DNA of 64,000 nt from Reyranella sp. (lineage in GTDB: Bacteria > Pseudomonadota > Alphaproteobacteria > Reyranellales > Reyranellaceae): the NCBI RefSeq assembly GCF_965279625.1, contig NZ_OZ257251.1, positions 2,282,061 to 2,346,060 of the forward strand, read 5' to 3'. Made by a program: the position numbers and the translations under genes. The notes under the pieces are model-generated. The model ran no database searches and was not told the DNA's origin. It saw only the letters and a list, made by a program, of their open reading frames with translations. Position 1 is the stretch's first letter, and the number at the start of each line of letters is the position of its first letter. This document shows, piece after piece, positions 34,808 through 42,366 of this stretch.

Positions 34808-36466
34808 ATGAGCGACCCGAAGAACGGCGCACACCTGCTGGTACGCAACCTCGAAGCCCAGGGCGTGGAGTACATATTCGGCATTCCCGGCGCCAAGATC
34901 GACCCGGTCTTCGATGCGCTTGCCGATTCGAAGATCAAGCTGGTCGTCTGCCGGCACGAGCAGAACGCGACCTTCATTGCGGGTGGCCTGGGCCGGCTGA
35001 CCGGCAAGGCCGGCGTGGTGCTCGTGACGTCTGGCCCCGGCGTCTCAAACCTGGCAACCGGCCTGGCCACCGCCAATACCGAGGGCGACCCGGTCGTGGC
35101 ACTGGGCGGCGCCGTACCGATCGCCGACCGGCTGAAGCAGGCGCACCAGAGCATGGACACGGTGGCATTGCTGCGCCCCATCACCAAGTATGCCGCCGAG
35201 ATCGATTCGCCGTCGGCGATCTCCGAAGCGACCGCCGCCGCCTTCCGCGCCGCCGAATCGGGCCGTCCGGGTACAGCCTTTCTCGGCCTGCCCAAGGACG
35301 TCATGAAGGCGCCCGCTCCCGGCGTTGTACTCACCCCCGCGACCATCCCGGCGCTCGGCGCGGCCAACACGGAAGCGATCGCCGCCGCCGCCGCCATGAT
35401 CGACGCGGCGGAACGGCCGGTGATGCTGCTCGGCATGCTGGCGAGCCAGGGGCCCGTCTCCCTGGCGGTGCGTGCGCTGCTCTCACGCACGCGGCTGGCC
35501 GTCGCCGGCACCTACCAGGCCGCGGGCGTGGTCCCGCGCGACCGGCTCGACTGTTTCGGCGGAAGGGTCGGGCTGTTCCACAACCAGCCGGCCGACCGAC
35601 TGCTCGACGAGGCGGACGTCGTCATCACCGTGGGTTTCGATCCGGTGGAATACGACCCGGCGCTCTGGAACGCCGGACGCAAGCGCAAGCTGATCCACAT
35701 CGACTTCATCCCGGCGGACTACGACCAGTACTACCGCCCCGACATCGAACTGATGGGCGACAGTGCCGCCACCCTGCGTGCCCTGTCGGCGCTGTTGCAG
35801 CCGAAGGATCGCCCGACGCAGACGGCGCTGCTGGCGGAGATCCAGCGCGAGCGCGCCACCGTGGCTGCCGAGGCCGCCAAGCGCTCCGGCGCCCCGGTCC
35901 ATCCGCTGCGGCTGGTGCATGAGCTGCAGAAGCTGATCGACGAGGACGTGACGCTCTGCTCCGACATGGGCTCCTTCCATATCTGGATGGCGCGGCACCT
36001 CATCAGCCACCGGCCGCGGCAGATCATGATCAGCAACGGCCAGCAGACCTTGGGCGTCGCCCTCCCATGGGGCATCGCCGCCTGCCTGGCGGAGCCCGGC
36101 CGCAAGGTGATCTCCATCTCCGGCGATGGCGGCTTCCTGTTCTCCGCGGTCGAACTCGAGACGGCGGTCCGCCTCAAGTGCAACTTCGTGCACGTCGTCT
36201 GGATCGACGGCAGCTACAACATGGTCGGCATCCAGCAGGTCGCGGCCTACGGCCGCGATTCAGGCGTGCATTTCGGCCCCGTGGACCTGGTGAAGTTCGC
36301 CGAGGCGATGGGCGCGCAGGGCCTGATGATCAAGGACGCCGACGATGTCGGCCCGACGCTCCGGAAGGCGATGGCGATGGATGGCCCGGTCCTGGTCGGC
36401 GTGCACGTCGACTATCGCGACAATCCGAGCCTGATGGCCGCGATGCACGAGGACGTCATCATCTGA
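34808..36466 (+). CDS. alsS: Catabolic-type acetolactate synthase
   Basis: GIPGAKID, RHEQNA, HQSMD, SNGQQTLGV and ThDP motif GDGGFLFS. GAKID and NGQQTLGV typify the AlsS/BudB type. Confidence 0.85.
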   Translation: MSDPKNGAHLLVRNLEAQGVEYIFGIPGAKIDPVFDALADSKIKLVVCRHEQNATFIAGGLGRLTGKAGVVLVTSGPGVSNLATGLATANTEGDPVVALGGAVPIADRLKQAHQSMDTVALLRPITKYAAEIDSPSAISEATAAAFRAAESGRPGTAFLGLPKDVMKAPAPGVVLTPATIPALGAANTEAIAAAAAMIDAAERPVMLLGMLASQGPVSLAVRALLSRTRLAVAGTYQAAGVVPRDRLDCFGGRVGLFHNQPADRLLDEADVVITVGFDPVEYDPALWNAGRKRKLIHIDFIPADYDQYYRPDIELMGDSAATLRALSALLQPKDRPTQTALLAEIQRERATVAAEAAKRSGAPVHPLRLVHELQKLIDEDVTLCSDMGSFHIWMARHLISHRPRQIMISNGQQTLGVALPWGIAACLAEPGRKVISISGDGGFLFSAVELETAVRLKCNFVHVVWIDGSYNMVGIQQVAAYGRDSGVHFGPVDLVKFAEAMGAQGLMIKDADDVGPTLRKAMAMDGPVLVGVHVDYRDNPSLMAAMHEDVII

Positions 36467-36491
36467 CGTCCTCTTCGCTCACGGTCCGCGA

Positions 36492-37001
36492 TCAGCGCAG
36501 GCCGTAGGACCGGCGGCCGGCCGACGTCAGGTCGAGCGCCCAGGCACCGAGCAGGCAGAGGAACGCCAGGATCGCGCCAAGCGTGCGGACGTGGTTCCAC
36601 AGCGCCCACGGCACGGAGAAGTCCTTCCAGTAGCTCGCGGCGTTGGCGTCGGCACCCGCCACGGTGGCCAGCGTCTCGTTCAGCGGCACATTGACCTGCA
36701 AGGTGACACCGATCACCGCGGCGGCATGGATCAGCGCGGCGAGGCCGGCAAGTCGCGCCGCGCTGCGATGGCCGGCCGAGCGAGCGCCCAGCGCCGCCAG
36801 CAGCGGCAGGATCAGAGCGCCGAAGAAGACGATGGCGAAGATCGGGCCGCGCACGGTGGTGTTCATGCCGTGCATGGCGTTGACGGCCGAGGCGGCGCCG
36901 CCGAGATCGAGGCCCGGCATGATGATGGTCGAGAAGGAATAGAAGATGCCCGCGCTCAGCGCGGTGCACAGCAAGGCGAGGACGAAGAAGACGTGGCGCA
37001 T
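36492..37001 (-). CDS. DUF1772 / anthrone oxygenase family membrane protein
   Basis: AGIFYSFS..IMPGL, NVPLN and WALWNHVR motifs. Confidence 0.85.
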   Translation of the reverse strand: MRHVFFVLALLCTALSAGIFYSFSTIIMPGLDLGGAASAVNAMHGMNTTVRGPIFAIVFFGALILPLLAALGARSAGHRSAARLAGLAALIHAAAVIGVTLQVNVPLNETLATVAGADANAASYWKDFSVPWALWNHVRTLGAILAFLCLLGAWALDLTSAGRRSYGLR

Positions 37002-37040: not shown

Positions 37041-38237
37041 CTAGCCGAGGCCGTTGCCGCCGTAAAGCCACTCGAGCGTATCGAGCCACTGGTCCTGGGT
37101 CCGCGCGCCCATGATGGCGTTGCGCAAGGCCGCATGCGGGCCGGCCGGATGATAGACGTGATCGCCCATCTCGCGGGACATGAGCTGTGTTCTTGCCGTG
37201 CGCAGGACACGACGGTCACGATAGGTGACGAGACCGGTCTCGATGGAATCGCCGCTGGACAGCGAATCGGCGAGGCACACGGCATCCTCCATCGCCATGC
37301 AGCCTCCCTGTGACATGTACTGCAGCATGGGGTGTGCAGCGTCGCCCAGCAGAGCCACCCGCCCGTCGACCCAGCGGTCGACCGGGTCACGGTCACAGAG
37401 AACCCACATGTGCCAGTTCTGGCCACGACGTATGATGTTCTGCGCCCGTTCGCAGACATGCAAGAAGCCCTCGCGCACCTCTTCCGTGTCTACCGGCTTG
37501 CCGGCGACCGGCTCGGGGGCATGGTTGTGATAGGTCACGACCAGATTGAACAGCTTCCAGCCCGACAGCGGATAGTGGACGATGTGGCACTTCGGGCCCG
37601 CCCACAGGGTGGCGGCGTTCCAGCGCAGGTCCTCGGGCATCTGATCGGTCGGAATCACCGAGCGGTAGGTCGTGTGTCCCGACACGCGCGGCGGACCGTC
37701 ATTGGTCACCTGCGCACGCACGTTCGACCACAGCCCATCCGCACCGATCAGGGCAAGGCCCTCGACCGTCTCGCCGTTGCGGAGCCGGGCGACGACCGAG
37801 GTGCCATCCTGAACGTATCCGGCGACCTCGGCGCTGGTGCGAAGCTCGATCAGCGGATGATCCTGGCAGCCTTTCAGCAGCACGCCATGAAGATCACCGC
37901 GATGGACGACGGCATAGGGATTGCCAAAACGTGCGCGGAACCTGTCGCCGAGATCGATATGGCAGATCTCGCCGTCGGCCAGCGCATCCATCAGCCGCAG
38001 CTGGTCGATATAGACCGCCATGCTGCGTGCGGCTTCGCCGACCCCGAGCCGATCGAAACAGTGGAAGGCGTTGGGGCCGAGTTGGATGCCGGCGCCGATC
38101 TCCCCGAGGCGGCTCGCTTTCTCGAGCACCTGCGAGGCGATGCCCTTCTGGGCGAGCGCCAGCGCCGCCGCCAGTCCGCCGATGCCGCCGCCGGCGATGA
38201 GAATCCTATCGGGGGCCACCGATGACCTTGTCGTCAT
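37041..38237 (-). CDS. Group A FAD-dependent monooxygenase, 3-hydroxybenzoate 6-hydroxylase-like
   Basis: GGGIGG, EIGAGIQLGPN, IGADG and GDAAHPMLQY motifs. Alternative start GTG 38219. Confidence 0.8.
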   Translation of the reverse strand: MTTRSSVAPDRILIAGGGIGGLAAALALAQKGIASQVLEKASRLGEIGAGIQLGPNAFHCFDRLGVGEAARSMAVYIDQLRLMDALADGEICHIDLGDRFRARFGNPYAVVHRGDLHGVLLKGCQDHPLIELRTSAEVAGYVQDGTSVVARLRNGETVEGLALIGADGLWSNVRAQVTNDGPPRVSGHTTYRSVIPTDQMPEDLRWNAATLWAGPKCHIVHYPLSGWKLFNLVVTYHNHAPEPVAGKPVDTEEVREGFLHVCERAQNIIRRGQNWHMWVLCDRDPVDRWVDGRVALLGDAAHPMLQYMSQGGCMAMEDAVCLADSLSSGDSIETGLVTYRDRRVLRTARTQLMSREMGDHVYHPAGPHAALRNAIMGARTQDQWLDTLEWLYGGNGLG

Positions 38238-39420
38238 GCAAACGGGCGATCTCGTGCCCGGGCAGGCCGAGGATACCGGAAAGGATCTCGTCCGTATGCT
38301 GGCCGAGGACGGGCGCCGGCTGCGGCGGCTGCCGCGGCACGGCGCCGAACTGCATCGGCGAGGCGGCGACGGGATAGCGGCCGATGCCGGGCTGTTCGAG
38401 GATGGTGAACATCGGATTGTCGAGCACGTTCGCTCTGTCGGCGGCCAGCTCGCGGAACGTCTGGTAGGGCGCCCAGAGGGCGCCGGCCTTCTTCAAAGCC
38501 GCCGAGACGTCCGCCGCATCGTGGGCAGCGACCCACGGCTCGATCACGGCAATGAGCTGCTGGCGGGCGTCCCAGCGGCCGGCATCGCTCTTGAGATCGA
38601 CGCCGGTCTCGACCTCGATCTTCCGGAAGGCGTCCGTGAATCCACCGGCCGCCGCCAATGCGTCGACGTGGCGGTCCGAGAAGATGCAGATCATCACGAA
38701 GCGGCCATCCTTCGTGCGGAAGTCGCGGCCGAAGGTGCCGAAGATCTCGTTGCCGAAGCGCGGCCGGTCGACGTCGTTCACGACCGCTTCGCCGAGATAG
38801 CCCAGCGCCGAAGTGGTCGCGAGCGCCATGTCCTGCAGCGGCAGCACGATCTTCTGCCCCTGCCCCGTCATGCGGCGATGGCGTTCGGCGGCCAGAAGCG
38901 AGAGGGCGCCGGCATAGGCGGCGGCCAGATCCCACGGCGGGCAGACCGCGTTCACCGGTCCTTCATGGCCGACCGGGCCGGTGACCATGGGGAAGCCGGT
39001 AATGGCGTTCACCGTGTAGTCGACATGGGCTGAACCGTCGCGCGCGCCGATGATGTTGAGCGCGATCAGGTCGGTGCGCTTCTTCGCCAGCTCCTCGTAG
39101 GCGAGCCAGCCGCGCGCCGGCATGTTGGTGGTGAAGATGCCCGCACCCTCGCCCGGCGCGGTGATCAGCGCCGTCAGCAGCTCGCGCCCTTTGGGATTGC
39201 GCAGATCGACGGCGATCGAACGTTTGCCCTTGTTGAGACCGGCCCAGTAGATCGAGCGGCCATCTTGCGTGACTGGCCAGCGCTCATTGTCGAGACCGCC
39301 CTTGATGTCGTCGAAGCGGATCACGTCGGCGCCCATCTGGGCGAGCGTCATGCCGCCCAGCGGCGCAGCGATGAATGCCGAGCCTTCGACGATGCGGAGG
39401 CCCGCGAGAATGCCTGTCAT
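38206..39420 (-). CDS. mct: Class III CoA-transferase, mesaconyl-CoA C1-C4 transferase (Mct)-like
   Basis: N-terminus GILAGLRIVEGSAFIAAPLGGMTLAQMGADVIRFD, RWPVT, WAGLNKGKRS and FGRDF match my recollection of Chloroflexus Mct; catalytic Asp in WDL. Confidence 0.75.
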   Translation of the reverse strand: MTGILAGLRIVEGSAFIAAPLGGMTLAQMGADVIRFDDIKGGLDNERWPVTQDGRSIYWAGLNKGKRSIAVDLRNPKGRELLTALITAPGEGAGIFTTNMPARGWLAYEELAKKRTDLIALNIIGARDGSAHVDYTVNAITGFPMVTGPVGHEGPVNAVCPPWDLAAAYAGALSLLAAERHRRMTGQGQKIVLPLQDMALATTSALGYLGEAVVNDVDRPRFGNEIFGTFGRDFRTKDGRFVMICIFSDRHVDALAAAGGFTDAFRKIEVETGVDLKSDAGRWDARQQLIAVIEPWVAAHDAADVSAALKKAGALWAPYQTFRELAADRANVLDNPMFTILEQPGIGRYPVAASPMQFGAVPRQPPQPAPVLGQHTDEILSGILGLPGHEIARLHDDKVIGGPR

Positions 39421-39459: not shown

Positions 39460-40581
39460 CTATTTGCGCCCGAGCGTGTGCTCGCGCTTCTCCAGCCACC
39501 AGCCGTATTCCGGCGTCCACAGCTCGAAGTCGGGATCGCAGCCCAGCGCCTGCGCGGCGTGCAACGCCCAGAACGGCTCGTAGAGCGCCTGGCGGCCGAT
39601 CGCGATCAGGTCGGCGTCGCCCGACTGCAGGATCGCCTCGGCCTGCGGCCCGTCGAGGATCAGGCCGACAGCCATCGTGGCGATGCCCGCCTGCTTCTTC
39701 ACGGCCGAAGCGAACGGCACCTGGAAACCAAGGCCGCGCTTCACACCGGCCGCGGTCGCGGCACCGGCGATACCGCCGGAGGAGCAGTCGATCACGTCGA
39801 CGCCGATCGCCTTCAGCTCCTGGGCGAAGGCCACCGTGTCATCGACGTCCCAGCCGCCGCCGCCATCGACGGCAGAGACGCGCACGAACAGCGGCTTGTT
39901 CTCCGGCCACGCCTCACGCACGGCGCGCGCCACGTCGAGCGGGAAGCGCATGCGGCCGGCGCGGTCGCCACCATACTGATCGTTGCGTGTGTTGCTGATC
40001 GGCGAGAGGAACTGCGCCAGCAGGTAGCCATGCGCACCATGCACCTCGAGCACGTCGTAGCCCGCTGCATCGGCCCGCTTCGCCGCGGCCGCGAACTTCT
40101 GCACCAGCTCCTCGATCTCGGCAACCGACAGGGCTCGCGGCTTCAGCCACCCTTCGGCCGCCGCAAGATCGGTCGGGCCGACCACTTCCCATTTCTGCCA
40201 GCCGGCGCCTTCGGGTCCGAACTGGCCGCGCTTGTCGAAGGTACGCGGCGTCGAGCCCTTGCGACCCGAGTGGGTGATCTGGGTCGCCGACAGCACGCCC
40301 TCGCCGCGGATGAAATCGGTCAGTCGCTTGTGGCTCGCGATCTGGCCGTCGTCCCACAGGCCGAGATCGCCCTGCGTGACGCGGCCTCTCGGTTCAACGG
40401 CGCAATTCTCGGTAAAGACGGTGCCGAACTTGCCCAGCGCGAACTTGCCGAGATGGACGAGGTGGAAATCGTTCACCAGCCCGTCCGTCGCGCGGAACTG
40501 GACCATGGGGGAAACGACGCAGCGATTGGGTGCGGTGACGCCGCGCATCTTGAGCGGCGTGAAGAGAAGCGGTTTCTGCAA
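39460..40581 (-). CDS. NADH:flavin oxidoreductase / Old Yellow Enzyme (YqjM-like)
   Basis: TTG start inferred. VVSPMVQF, HGAHGYLLAQFLSP, DQYGG motifs. Confidence 0.88.
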   Translation of the reverse strand: MQKPLLFTPLKMRGVTAPNRCVVSPMVQFRATDGLVNDFHLVHLGKFALGKFGTVFTENCAVEPRGRVTQGDLGLWDDGQIASHKRLTDFIRGEGVLSATQITHSGRKGSTPRTFDKRGQFGPEGAGWQKWEVVGPTDLAAAEGWLKPRALSVAEIEELVQKFAAAAKRADAAGYDVLEVHGAHGYLLAQFLSPISNTRNDQYGGDRAGRMRFPLDVARAVREAWPENKPLFVRVSAVDGGGGWDVDDTVAFAQELKAIGVDVIDCSSGGIAGAATAAGVKRGLGFQVPFASAVKKQAGIATMAVGLILDGPQAEAILQSGDADLIAIGRQALYEPFWALHAAQALGCDPDFELWTPEYGWWLEKREHTLGRK

Positions 40582-40647
40582 AGGTCGGTCCCCCGGACGG
40601 GATGGCTTACGGAAAGCCCAACATAGACCGGGGCGACCCTCAGGGCC

Positions 40648-40662
40648 TATCCTCCCCCCATG
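40648..40662 (+). promoter_or_regulatory. Leaderless-type promoter: -10 hexamer 6 nt before the ATG
   Basis: TATCCT-CCCCCC-ATG with no Shine-Dalgarno. Confidence 0.5.
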
Positions 40663-42366
40663 TTTGACCTCGTCATCCGAAACGGAACCGTGATCGACGG
40701 CTCGGGCGCCCCGCGCCGAATCGCCGATGTTGCAGTGCAAGGTGATCGCGTCGCCGCCGTCGGTCCCAAGCTGGGACAGGGCAAGCGCGAGATCGACGCC
40801 GACGGGCTGATCGTTGCCCCAGGCTTCGTCGACATCCACACCCACTACGATGGACAGGCGACCTGGGACCCGTTCGTCACGCCGTCCTCCTGGCATGGCG
40901 TCACGACGACGGTGTTCGGCAATTGCGGCGTCGGCTTCGCGCCGGTGCGGCCCGGCGCCTCGGGTTACCTCATCAACCTGATGGAAGGCGTCGAGGACAT
41001 TCCCGGCACCGTCCTCAGCGAGGGCGTGAAGTTCAACTGGGAATCCTTTCCCGATTATCTCGATGCGCTGGCCTCGATGGATCGCGCGGTCGACGTGGCC
41101 GCACAGCTGCCGCATGGCGCGCTGCGCTTCTACGTGATGGGCGATCGCGGTGCCGAGCATGCCGAGGTGCCGACCGAACGCGAGATCGAGGAGATGGCCC
41201 GTCTCACCGAGGAAGCGCTGCACGCCGGCGCCATGGGCTTCACCACCTCGCGCACCACCAAGCACAAGGCCCGTGACGGCCGCTTCACGCCCACGCTCAG
41301 CGCCCGCGAGGCCGAGTTGCTGGGCATTGCCCAGGGCATGAAGCGCGCCGGCCGTGGCGTGCTGCAGGTCAATTCCGACTTCGGGCCGGGCGAGTTCGAA
41401 GCGCTGGACGCGGCCGCGAAGCTGGCCGGCCGTCCGCTCTCCTGCCTGCTGGTACAGGTCGACGCGCAGCCCAAGCTTTGGCGCGAGACACTCGACCAGA
41501 TCAACGCCGTGCGCCGCAGCGGCCGCATGGCCAACGCGCAGGTGGGCTCAAGGCCGATCGGCGTCATCATGGGCCTCGAGACGACGGCGCATCCGTTCGC
41601 GGGTCATCGCGCCTGGCTCGACATGCGCAAACTGTCGCCCGAGGAGCGCTACCAGCGCCTCGCCACCGACGCCGACCTGCGCATGGCGCTCACCGAGACG
41701 CAGCAGGAGCCCAACCCGCGCGCCTTCATGGCCGAGGCCTTCGACCGGATGTTCCCGATCGGCGAGCGGCCCGACTACGAACCCGACACCAAGGATTCGA
41801 TCGCGTCCATCGCGCAGCGCACGGGACGCACGCCGCAGGCGGTGGCACTCGAGGAGATGATGTCACGCGGCGGCAAGGGTCTCCTGATGCTGCCCTTCGA
41901 GAACTATGCCTATGGCAGCCTCGACGTGGTGCACGAGATGATCACCGACCCCGCATCGGTGCTGGGCATCGCCGACGGCGGTGCCCATGTCGGCGTGATC
42001 TGCGACGCCTCCTCGCCGACCTCGCTGCTGACCCTGTGGGGCCGCGACCGCACCCGAGGACCGAAGCTCGACCTCGAATTCCTGATCGCCAAGCAGACGC
42101 GTGGCACGGCCGAGGCCTATGGGCTGATGGACCGCGGGCTGCTGGCGCCGGGCCACAAGGCCGACATCAACGTGATCGACTTCGACGCCCTGACCCTGAA
42201 GCGCCCCGAGGTTGCCTACGACCTGCCGACTGGCGGCCGCCGCCTGATCCAGCGCGCCTCGGGCTACCGGCACACGTTCAATGCCGGCGTCGAAACGCTG
42301 CAGAACGACGATTTGACCGGCGAACGCCCCGGCCGGCTGGTGCGCGGTGCGCAGACGGCGCGATAG
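40660..42366 (+). CDS. N-acyl-D-amino-acid deacylase family amidohydrolase
   Basis: APGFVDIHTHYD, GVTTTVFGNCG and ADGGAH motifs. Confidence 0.9.
   Translation: MFDLVIRNGTVIDGSGAPRRIADVAVQGDRVAAVGPKLGQGKREIDADGLIVAPGFVDIHTHYDGQATWDPFVTPSSWHGVTTTVFGNCGVGFAPVRPGASGYLINLMEGVEDIPGTVLSEGVKFNWESFPDYLDALASMDRAVDVAAQLPHGALRFYVMGDRGAEHAEVPTEREIEEMARLTEEALHAGAMGFTTSRTTKHKARDGRFTPTLSAREAELLGIAQGMKRAGRGVLQVNSDFGPGEFEALDAAAKLAGRPLSCLLVQVDAQPKLWRETLDQINAVRRSGRMANAQVGSRPIGVIMGLETTAHPFAGHRAWLDMRKLSPEERYQRLATDADLRMALTETQQEPNPRAFMAEAFDRMFPIGERPDYEPDTKDSIASIAQRTGRTPQAVALEEMMSRGGKGLLMLPFENYAYGSLDVVHEMITDPASVLGIADGGAHVGVICDASSPTSLLTLWGRDRTRGPKLDLEFLIAKQTRGTAEAYGLMDRGLLAPGHKADINVIDFDALTLKRPEVAYDLPTGGRRLIQRASGYRHTFNAGVETLQNDDLTGERPGRLVRGAQTAR

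Follow-up and report, generated by a model that had tools for sequence, protein, structure and literature searches.

An Mct-family CoA-transferase in a genus-specific operon of the alphaproteobacterium Reyranella

The gene at 38206..39420 of a 64,000-nucleotide stretch of the Reyranella sp. genome (the window; 2.282-2.346 Mb of a complete, single-contig genome of 5.8 Mb) encodes a homologue of mesaconyl-coenzyme A (CoA) C1-C4 transferase (Mct). It is an ordinary member of the Mct family in an unusual setting: a soil/freshwater, non-phototrophic heterotroph and an operon specific to the genus. With a probability of roughly 0.6, as judged from sequence, the product truly is an intramolecular mesaconyl-CoA transferase that serves the metabolism of C5-dicarboxylyl-CoA esters. 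Family membership, signature residues, candidate partner genes and the structure of the operon are established by the analysis and are described in this order below.

Family membership and active-site residues

38206..39420, minus strand: Mct homologue gene; open reading frame from ATG 39420 to TAG 38206-38208, 404 aa

The 404-aa product consists over its whole length of a family III CoA-transferase domain (PF02515; residues 5-376 align with model positions 1-366 at 195 bits). Its top NCBIfam family is TIGR04253 (2-methylfumaryl-CoA isomerase), matched with 513 bits over model positions 1-403; the runner-up family reaches 103 bits. Among PDB structures it aligns best with 8APQ (C. aurantiacus Mct, E 9e-146) and with 7XKG (Roseiflexus MCT, E 9e-143), in both cases from end to end with two single-residue indels. 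The identity to the Mct genes taken from the Chloroflexus and Roseiflexus genomes is 54-55% over the full length. The genome carries approximately 40 family III CoA-transferases, of which the product of 38206-39420 is the sole Mct-like one; its paralogues in the same genome are only 26-29% identical to it.

The active site of Chloroflexus Mct is known in detail from the work of Pfister, Zarzycki, and Erb (Pfister et al. 2022, PMC9813914): catalysis rests on Asp165; the free carboxylate is gripped by Arg47 and Tyr136—with Arg47 occupying the space of the Gly-rich gating loop; Leu43 narrows the entrance, a Leu or Ile at this position being stated as conserved among intramolecular transferases; and the residues of the CoA "cork" are Ile74, Arg75, Asn100, Phe101, and Arg104. 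The Reyranella equivalents (Chloroflexus numbering in brackets) are Asp164 (165), Arg47, Tyr135 (136), and Leu43, and for the cork Leu73 (Ile74), Arg74 (75), Asn99 (100), Met100 (Phe101), and Arg103 (104). Chloroflexus D135 is likewise retained. The sole change of character at the named residues is the replacement of the adenine-stacking Phe101 by Met, a position that is F, L or M across 44 family members and L in several of those encoded next to a gene for the hydratase Meh. The resemblance to Mct with the catalytic Asp retained, from which the first-pass annotation had started, is therefore borne out by the TIGR04253 score, the two structural matches and Asp164.

Positions 43, 100, and 136 are specific to the family since the four own-genome paralogues compared differ there: they carry D or V at 43 and P, S, V or L at 136, and position 100 differs too. 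An extra Gly-rich gating loop is absent because the alignment to 8APQ contains only the two one-residue indels. A search for neofunctionalization as loss of conserved residues across 123 conserved family columns yielded nothing beyond the usual spread of the family: the Reyranella protein deviates at five (V17I, A163P, G169A, T249S, and W253V), Meh-adjacent members at 6-16. Judged by these columns, there is no sign of a remodeled active site. The suggestion that the protein is a paralogue acting on another dicarboxylyl-CoA thus gains no positive support at the residue level and stays a lesser possibility, which is taken up again with the operon.

The TIGR04253 score lies under the curated equivalog cutoff of 725 bits. 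To place this value, the mct loci of Chloroflexus and Roseiflexus were retrieved with a back-translated pattern as positive controls for the hidden Markov model. Their Mct proteins score 852-903 bits, whereas ten alphaproteobacterial homologues score 383-605, all of them under 725, including six encoded directly beside a Meh gene (383-572). Since only Chloroflexi pass and Meh-adjacent homologues fail as well, the cutoff is uninformative on function in Proteobacteria. The sub-cutoff score was accordingly rejected as a refutation of Mct membership: the Reyranella protein is formally below the family cutoff, as the check proposed in the first-pass annotation would register, but a threshold that admits Chloroflexi alone does not discriminate. 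At the level of sequence, every criterion except this curated score assigns 38206-39420 to the Mct family.

The score under the cutoff and the approximately 40 family III CoA-transferases of the genome would also suit an ordinary intermolecular family III enzyme—a succinyl-CoA:dicarboxylate CoA-transferase, for example—that merely resembles Mct. This is highly improbable given the distance of the next-best family (103 against 513 bits), the low identity of the own-genome paralogues and their lack of the Mct-specific Leu43, Asn100, and Tyr136, and an alignment to 8APQ that leaves no room for a Gly-rich gating loop.

The phylogeny was determined by maximum likelihood from 48 sequences in a quick search (support from the Shimodaira-Hasegawa-like approximate likelihood ratio test, SH-aLRT), with the four own-genome paralogues as the outgroup. 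The Mct family is monophyletic with respect to other family III CoA-transferases at 100% SH-aLRT and contains the Reyranella gene. The eight Chloroflexi sequences branch from within the alphaproteobacterial Mct diversity. The Reyranella sequences fall into a six-row subclade with 99% support, within which a search for common neighbors found no consistent gene context. Meh-adjacent members are both basal to and derived from this subclade; by bracketing in the tree, the predicted ancestral function of the Reyranella lineage is that of the Mct-Meh pair.

Partner genes and distribution in Alphaproteobacteria

The genome was searched by tblastn with the six proteins of a Chloroflexus locus (L108; published order Meh, SmtA, SmtB, Mct, Mcl, Mch). 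No mch, meh, mcl or smtAB is found in the window, in agreement with the first-pass annotation; the best non-Mct matches lie at 0.70, 1.54, 2.72, and 3.04 Mb. Genes in this GC-rich genome were called by a codon-position rule (G+C content higher at the first than at the second position, GC1 > GC2, and high at the third, GC3), which reproduced the homology-supported genes. An Mch homologue, 60-63% identical to Chloroflexi Mch, is encoded at 3.035 Mb. Together with a CitE-like lyase/thioesterase gene, it stands immediately upstream of sdhC-sdhD-sdhA-sdhB, apparently in one gene string (C1:3031568-3037403, minus strand; C1 denotes the contig). A Meh-like hydratase with 47% identity is encoded beside purB at C1:1536649-1537500 (plus strand; 1.537 Mb), and two weaker Meh paralogues (4571541-4572386 and 400942-401757) bring the number to three. 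The paralogue at 0.40 Mb adjoins a family III CoA-transferase. The Meh family is essentially devoid of a curated model: for alphaproteobacterial members, the Pfam and NCBIfam searches came up empty, and the Reyranella copy gave just a weak match to FAS1_DH_region (hot-dog). The best SmtAB matches (39% at 2.72 Mb) are within the range of generic family III paralogues.

Ccr is present (615 bits; cutoff 379), and its gene is directly followed by that of an Mcd-type extended acyl-CoA dehydrogenase. Because these two enzymes of the ethylmalonyl-CoA pathway are present, mesaconyl-C1-CoA is an expected metabolite of this organism. The genome furthermore contains ten genes for HpcH/CitE-type lyases. 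A separate cluster at C1:698204-702336 (plus strand) encodes an acyl-CoA dehydrogenase together with MaoC-type hydratases and a CitE/Ccl-like lyase, as well as a CoA-transferase that reaches 449 bits against the cutoff of 700 for the succinyl-CoA:mesaconate CoA-transferase model; the whole looks like a cluster for the degradation of itaconate, methylsuccinate or mesaconate.

The scatter of candidate partners is not peculiar to Mct. The gentisate pathway of the same genome is fully dispersed, with the 3-hydroxybenzoate 6-monooxygenase homologue (3HB6H) of the Mct operon at 2.32 Mb and the following genes 0.85-1.4 Mb away from it, at 3.17, 0.94, and 3.33 Mb:

C1:3170952-3172088: gentisate 1,2-dioxygenase, 548 bits against a cutoff of 442
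C1:940542-941204: maiA
C1:3327356-3328057: FAH-family hydrolase

The lack of clustering of mct partners therefore means little here.

The joint presence of the Mch, Mct (55%), and Meh-like homologues is what a partial 3-hydroxypropionate bi-cycle would predict, in which a true Mct contributes to the co-assimilation of glyoxylate and propionyl-CoA by way of beta-methylmalyl-CoA, mesaconyl-C1-CoA, mesaconyl-C4-CoA, and citramalyl-CoA, a route put forward for Ca. Riegeria, Kentron, and Accumulibacter. The same partial pathway beside the ethylmalonyl-CoA pathway has been described in an alphaproteobacterial symbiont (PMC6486704; PMC6593406). For Reyranella, this is nevertheless quite improbable: a close trifunctional Mcl is missing, the best match reaching 31%; Mch, beside its CitE-like gene and sdhCDAB, is explained by the ethylmalonyl-CoA pathway, for which Ccr and Mcd are present; and Mct and Mch show no positive association across genomes, as detailed below. 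The dispersed glyoxylate/propionate route of the first-pass annotation is hence only partly supported: the gene does lie outside a bi-cycle cluster, and the genome search for mch, meh, and mcl does return dispersed Mch and Meh-like homologues. The specific route does not follow from this because there is no close Mcl, the SmtAB matches are generic, and the Meh-like subgroup also occurs in genomes without Mct.

Of the 301 alphaproteobacterial species in an evenly drawn sample, 36 have an Mct homologue (threshold E <= 1e-80); relatives among the 301 genomes are not independent, and the co-occurrence counts are descriptive. Meh is encoded directly beside Mct in 9 of 35 alphaproteobacterial loci (10-kb flanks), and a Mcd-like extended acyl-CoA dehydrogenase is nearby in approximately eight. 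Meh is present in 28 of the 36 genomes with Mct compared with 58 of the 265 without it. A positive association with Mch was not found: Mch occurs in 8/36 genomes with Mct versus 91/265 without. Among the 23 genomes with Mcd but without Mch, 18 have Mct, as opposed to 7 of the 89 with both Mcd and Mch. At loci L049, L050, L053-L055, L057, L062, L063, L068, and L072, the genes for Mct, Meh, and Mcd are often clustered, frequently with an AMP-ligase. These patterns fit a family that would act on mesaconyl-CoA in Alphaproteobacteria. The clustering and the counts suggest a natural route from methylsuccinyl-CoA to citramalyl-CoA, like the engineered "methylsuccinate module" of the synthetic THETA cycle, in which Ccr, Ecm, Mcd (as an oxidase), Mct, Meh, and Ccl are combined (bioRxiv 10.64898/2026.01.16.699985). 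A literature search of incomplete coverage found no paper on Mct in Reyranella or on a natural Mcd-Mct-Meh route.

Ccr is missing from five genomes with Mcd and Mct but without Mch. In these genomes, the module looks like a catabolic route—methylsuccinyl-CoA to mesaconyl-C1-CoA, mesaconyl-C4-CoA, and citramalyl-CoA—and not like a variant of the ethylmalonyl-CoA pathway. The idea that Mct marks a Ccr-dependent variant of that pathway was rejected as a general explanation, on account of these five genomes and of a complete genome of the same genus (G074) that is devoid of Mcd. The latter features Mch (86%) and the Meh-like protein (73%), and its best Mcd match is 44% over the acyl-CoA dehydrogenase core only. 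Since it keeps the Mct block without Mcd, genes of the ethylmalonyl-CoA pathway vary within the genus while the block does not.

The operon and its possible link to aromatic catabolism

The Mct gene lies between an Old Yellow Enzyme-type (OYE) gene and the 3HB6H gene in an operon with the following further elements:

39460..40581, minus strand: OYE-type NADH:flavin oxidoreductase, approximately 373 aa from TTG 40581; first operon gene; PF00724, 223 bits
37041..38237, minus strand: flavin adenine dinucleotide (FAD)-dependent 3-hydroxybenzoate 6-monooxygenase homologue (3HB6H), 398 aa; NF006021, 561 bits, cutoff 459
36492..37001, minus strand: DUF1772/anthrone-oxygenase-like membrane protein, 169 aa; last operon gene; PF08592, 56 bits; weak ChrI match
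36438..36484: imperfect inverted repeat between the convergent ends of the DUF1772 gene and alsS; 21-nt arms, 76% complementary, with a perfect 10-bp core
40582..40659: divergent intergenic region of 78 bp between the OYE gene and an amidohydrolase gene (40660-42366, plus strand)

The OYE gene ends 39 nt before the Mct start, the 3HB6H start overlaps the 3' end of Mct by 32 nt (ATG 38237) or by 14 nt (in-frame GTG 38219), and a gap of 39 nt separates 3HB6H from the DUF1772 gene. The region 40582-40659 is the presumed promoter region of the operon; a promoter scan found no sigma-70-like site in it, which is uninformative for a GC-rich alphaproteobacterium. The inverted repeat is possibly a bidirectional terminator; it is without a T-run, and the scan for terminators gave no hit there.

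The operon monooxygenase is the only 3HB6H orthologue of the genome and is 63% identical to Azospirillum and Phaeobacter enzymes encoded inside canonical gentisate clusters. The OYE has its best NCBIfam match in the C-terminal OYE half of salicylyl-CoA 5-hydroxylase (PRK08255, 357 bits, model positions 396-745), followed by NamA (317 bits against a cutoff of 431). FAD-monooxygenase and OYE modules thus recur both as a fusion and as neighbors. By DNA search, the OYE-Mct-monooxygenase block is present in approximately 22 of 24 same-genus genomes, down to 77% identity, and one genome is without it. The DUF1772 gene is co-linear at the DNA level in approximately five of these genomes and absent at that level in others. 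In some Reyranella genomes, the spacer between Mct and the monooxygenase measures 110-420 bp. No such block turned up beyond the genus: at the 34 other alphaproteobacterial Mct loci, neither an OYE nor a 3HB6H gene is a neighbor of Mct. In a genome of a sister family (G329, L133:7118-9034), an 80%-identical 3HB6H orthologue is followed by a 167-aa Flavin_Reduct protein, with neither Mct nor OYE; there, the same hydroxylase has another reductase as its partner.

This arrangement raises the question of a shifted substrate tied to the operon. An enzyme of the Mct family could here handle another dicarboxylyl-CoA from gentisate-type catabolism—citraconyl-, maleyl-, fumaryl- or a ring-derived dicarboxylyl-CoA—or mesaconate from methylgentisates produced by the co-transcribed 3HB6H, with the OYE as the ene- or quinone-reductase of the same route. 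The tight gene order conserved across the genus speaks for it, as does the identity of the monooxygenase as the sole 3HB6H of the genome. So does the fusion of an FAD-monooxygenase with an OYE in salicylyl-CoA 5-hydroxylase, whose substrate is a CoA thioester and whose OYE domain is the best match of the operon OYE. In addition, the cleavage of methylgentisate can give citraconate or mesaconate together with pyruvate. Such a shift is unlikely all the same, because the arrangement was not found beyond the genus, the sister-family orthologue adjoins a Flavin_Reduct protein and no Mct, the Azospirillum and Phaeobacter enzymes stand in gentisate clusters without any CoA-transferase, some Reyranella genomes have spacers of 110-420 bp between Mct and the hydroxylase, and the substrate-binding residues are unchanged.

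A recruitment of the Mct enzyme into an aromatic-acid operon with 3HB6H, the SdgC-like OYE, and the anthrone-oxygenase-like protein, where it would handle C5 or other dicarboxylyl-CoA esters from (methyl)gentisate or a new substrate, appears distinctly doubtful; if true, it would connect gentisate-type aromatic catabolism to the isomerization of CoA esters in a way that has yet to be described. The functional link of Mct to the aromatic operon has no support beyond gene order. In the simplest reading, the Mct gene came to be transcribed together with a hydroxylase-plus-reductase pair in the ancestor of Reyranella. The placement of Mct between OYE and 3HB6H is genus-specific and probably not mechanistically required.

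The fusion protein SdgC (PRK08255, an FAD monooxygenase-OYE fusion) is a close parallel to the operon, which likewise brings together an FAD monooxygenase and an OYE, along with a CoA-handling enzyme, and whose OYE matches the C-terminal half of SdgC best. However, the Reyranella monooxygenase is an orthologue of 3HB6H, which in related gentisate clusters acts on the free acid, and no relative of the SdgC N-terminal domain, and the genes are separate.

Proposed role, related systems and significance

The preferred reading, a genuine mesaconyl-CoA transferase, has to be weighed against several observations. Besides the score of 513 bits under the cutoff of 725, two of the five deviating columns (A163P and G169A) flank the catalytic Asp, and the six-row Reyranella subclade holds no Meh-adjacent member. 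No partner gene adjoins the Mct gene, the Meh-like and Mcd genes being megabases away. The Meh-like protein belongs to a subgroup that is equally common in genomes without Mct, and a genome of the same family without Mct retains its orthologue. The best genome match to Chloroflexus/Roseiflexus Mcl is 31% over 278 aa, no CitE/HpcH lyase passes the cutoff of the citramalyl-CoA-lyase model, and none is assignable as citramalyl-CoA lyase, Mcl1 or Mcl2. The same-genus genome G074 retains the Mct operon in the absence of an Mcd orthologue. Finally, the immediate neighbors are a flavin reductase and an aromatic hydroxylase in overlapping or close frames throughout the genus, which could indicate another, operon-linked substrate.

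For a mesaconyl-CoA transferase in Reyranella, we infer activity, flux direction, and physiological role as follows. By analogy with the Chloroflexus enzyme, Asp164 would attack the thioester to form a mesaconyl-aspartyl anhydride. CoA would remain bound and plug the tunnel, secured by Arg74, Asn99, Arg103, and the Met100 that replaces Phe, and Leu43 would narrow the entrance. The free mesaconate, gripped by Arg47 and Tyr135, could then flip in the sealed pocket and take up CoA on its other carboxyl. In this manner, the enzyme would link the pool of mesaconyl-C1-CoA—presumably made via Ccr and Mcd and interconverted via Mch—to mesaconyl-C4-CoA. The Meh-like hydratase and a CitE/HpcH-type lyase may convert the latter into (S)-citramalyl-CoA and on to acetyl-CoA and pyruvate, or operate in reverse.

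Among known systems, Chloroflexus and Roseiflexus Mct share with the Reyranella protein the length and domain, approximately 55% identity, the clade, and the catalytic, carboxylate-binding, and entrance residues. They differ in the bit score (852-903 compared with 513), in Phe101 where Reyranella has Met, and in an mch/mcl/meh/smtAB cluster that is missing from Reyranella, a non-phototrophic alphaproteobacterial host with the gene in an operon with OYE and 3HB6H. The alphaproteobacterial Mct-Meh(-Mcd) modules, which account for the 9 of 35 loci, belong to the same family and feature similar TIGR04253 scores (383-605) and the same signature residues, including L or M at position 101; in contrast to them, the Meh-like and Mcd genes of Reyranella are megabases off and the neighbors are unrelated flavoenzymes.

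Outside the Chloroflexi, Mct is known from the partial 3-hydroxypropionate bi-cycles of Ca. Riegeria (santandreae), Kentron, Thiosymbion, Competibacter, and Accumulibacter (PMC6593406, PMC6486704). Ca. Riegeria, Kentron, Thiosymbion, and Accumulibacter resemble Reyranella in having Mct, Meh, and Mch homologues beside the ethylmalonyl-CoA pathway in a non-autotrophic or mixotrophic proteobacterium. They differ from it by recognizable Mcl and Smt, Reyranella being without a close Mcl. The Riegeria paper (PMC6486704) states that Mct and Meh are without homologues in Rhodospirillales; yet Reyranella and 35 other sampled alphaproteobacterial genomes carry Mct, and the breadth of the family is thus under-appreciated. 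ThnP of anaerobic naphthalene degradation (PMC11659651) also belongs to family III and shifts CoA from one carboxyl of a molecule to a second one, a likeness drawn from its description; its substrate and context are different.

Mct is usually treated as a signature of the autotrophic 3-hydroxypropionate bi-cycle and of a few partial-cycle symbionts. The family is common in free-living Alphaproteobacteria (36/301 sampled species), and under the curated NCBIfam cutoff all of these members stay generic "CoA transferase" entries, which pathway reconstructions overlook. Two points are of most interest: the genus-specific operon, that is, the unexplained, stable association of the Mct gene with an aromatic hydroxylase and an ene-reductase in Reyranella; and the complementarity of Mct and Mch, the wider pattern being the joint occurrence of Mcd, Mct, and Meh in the absence of Mch.

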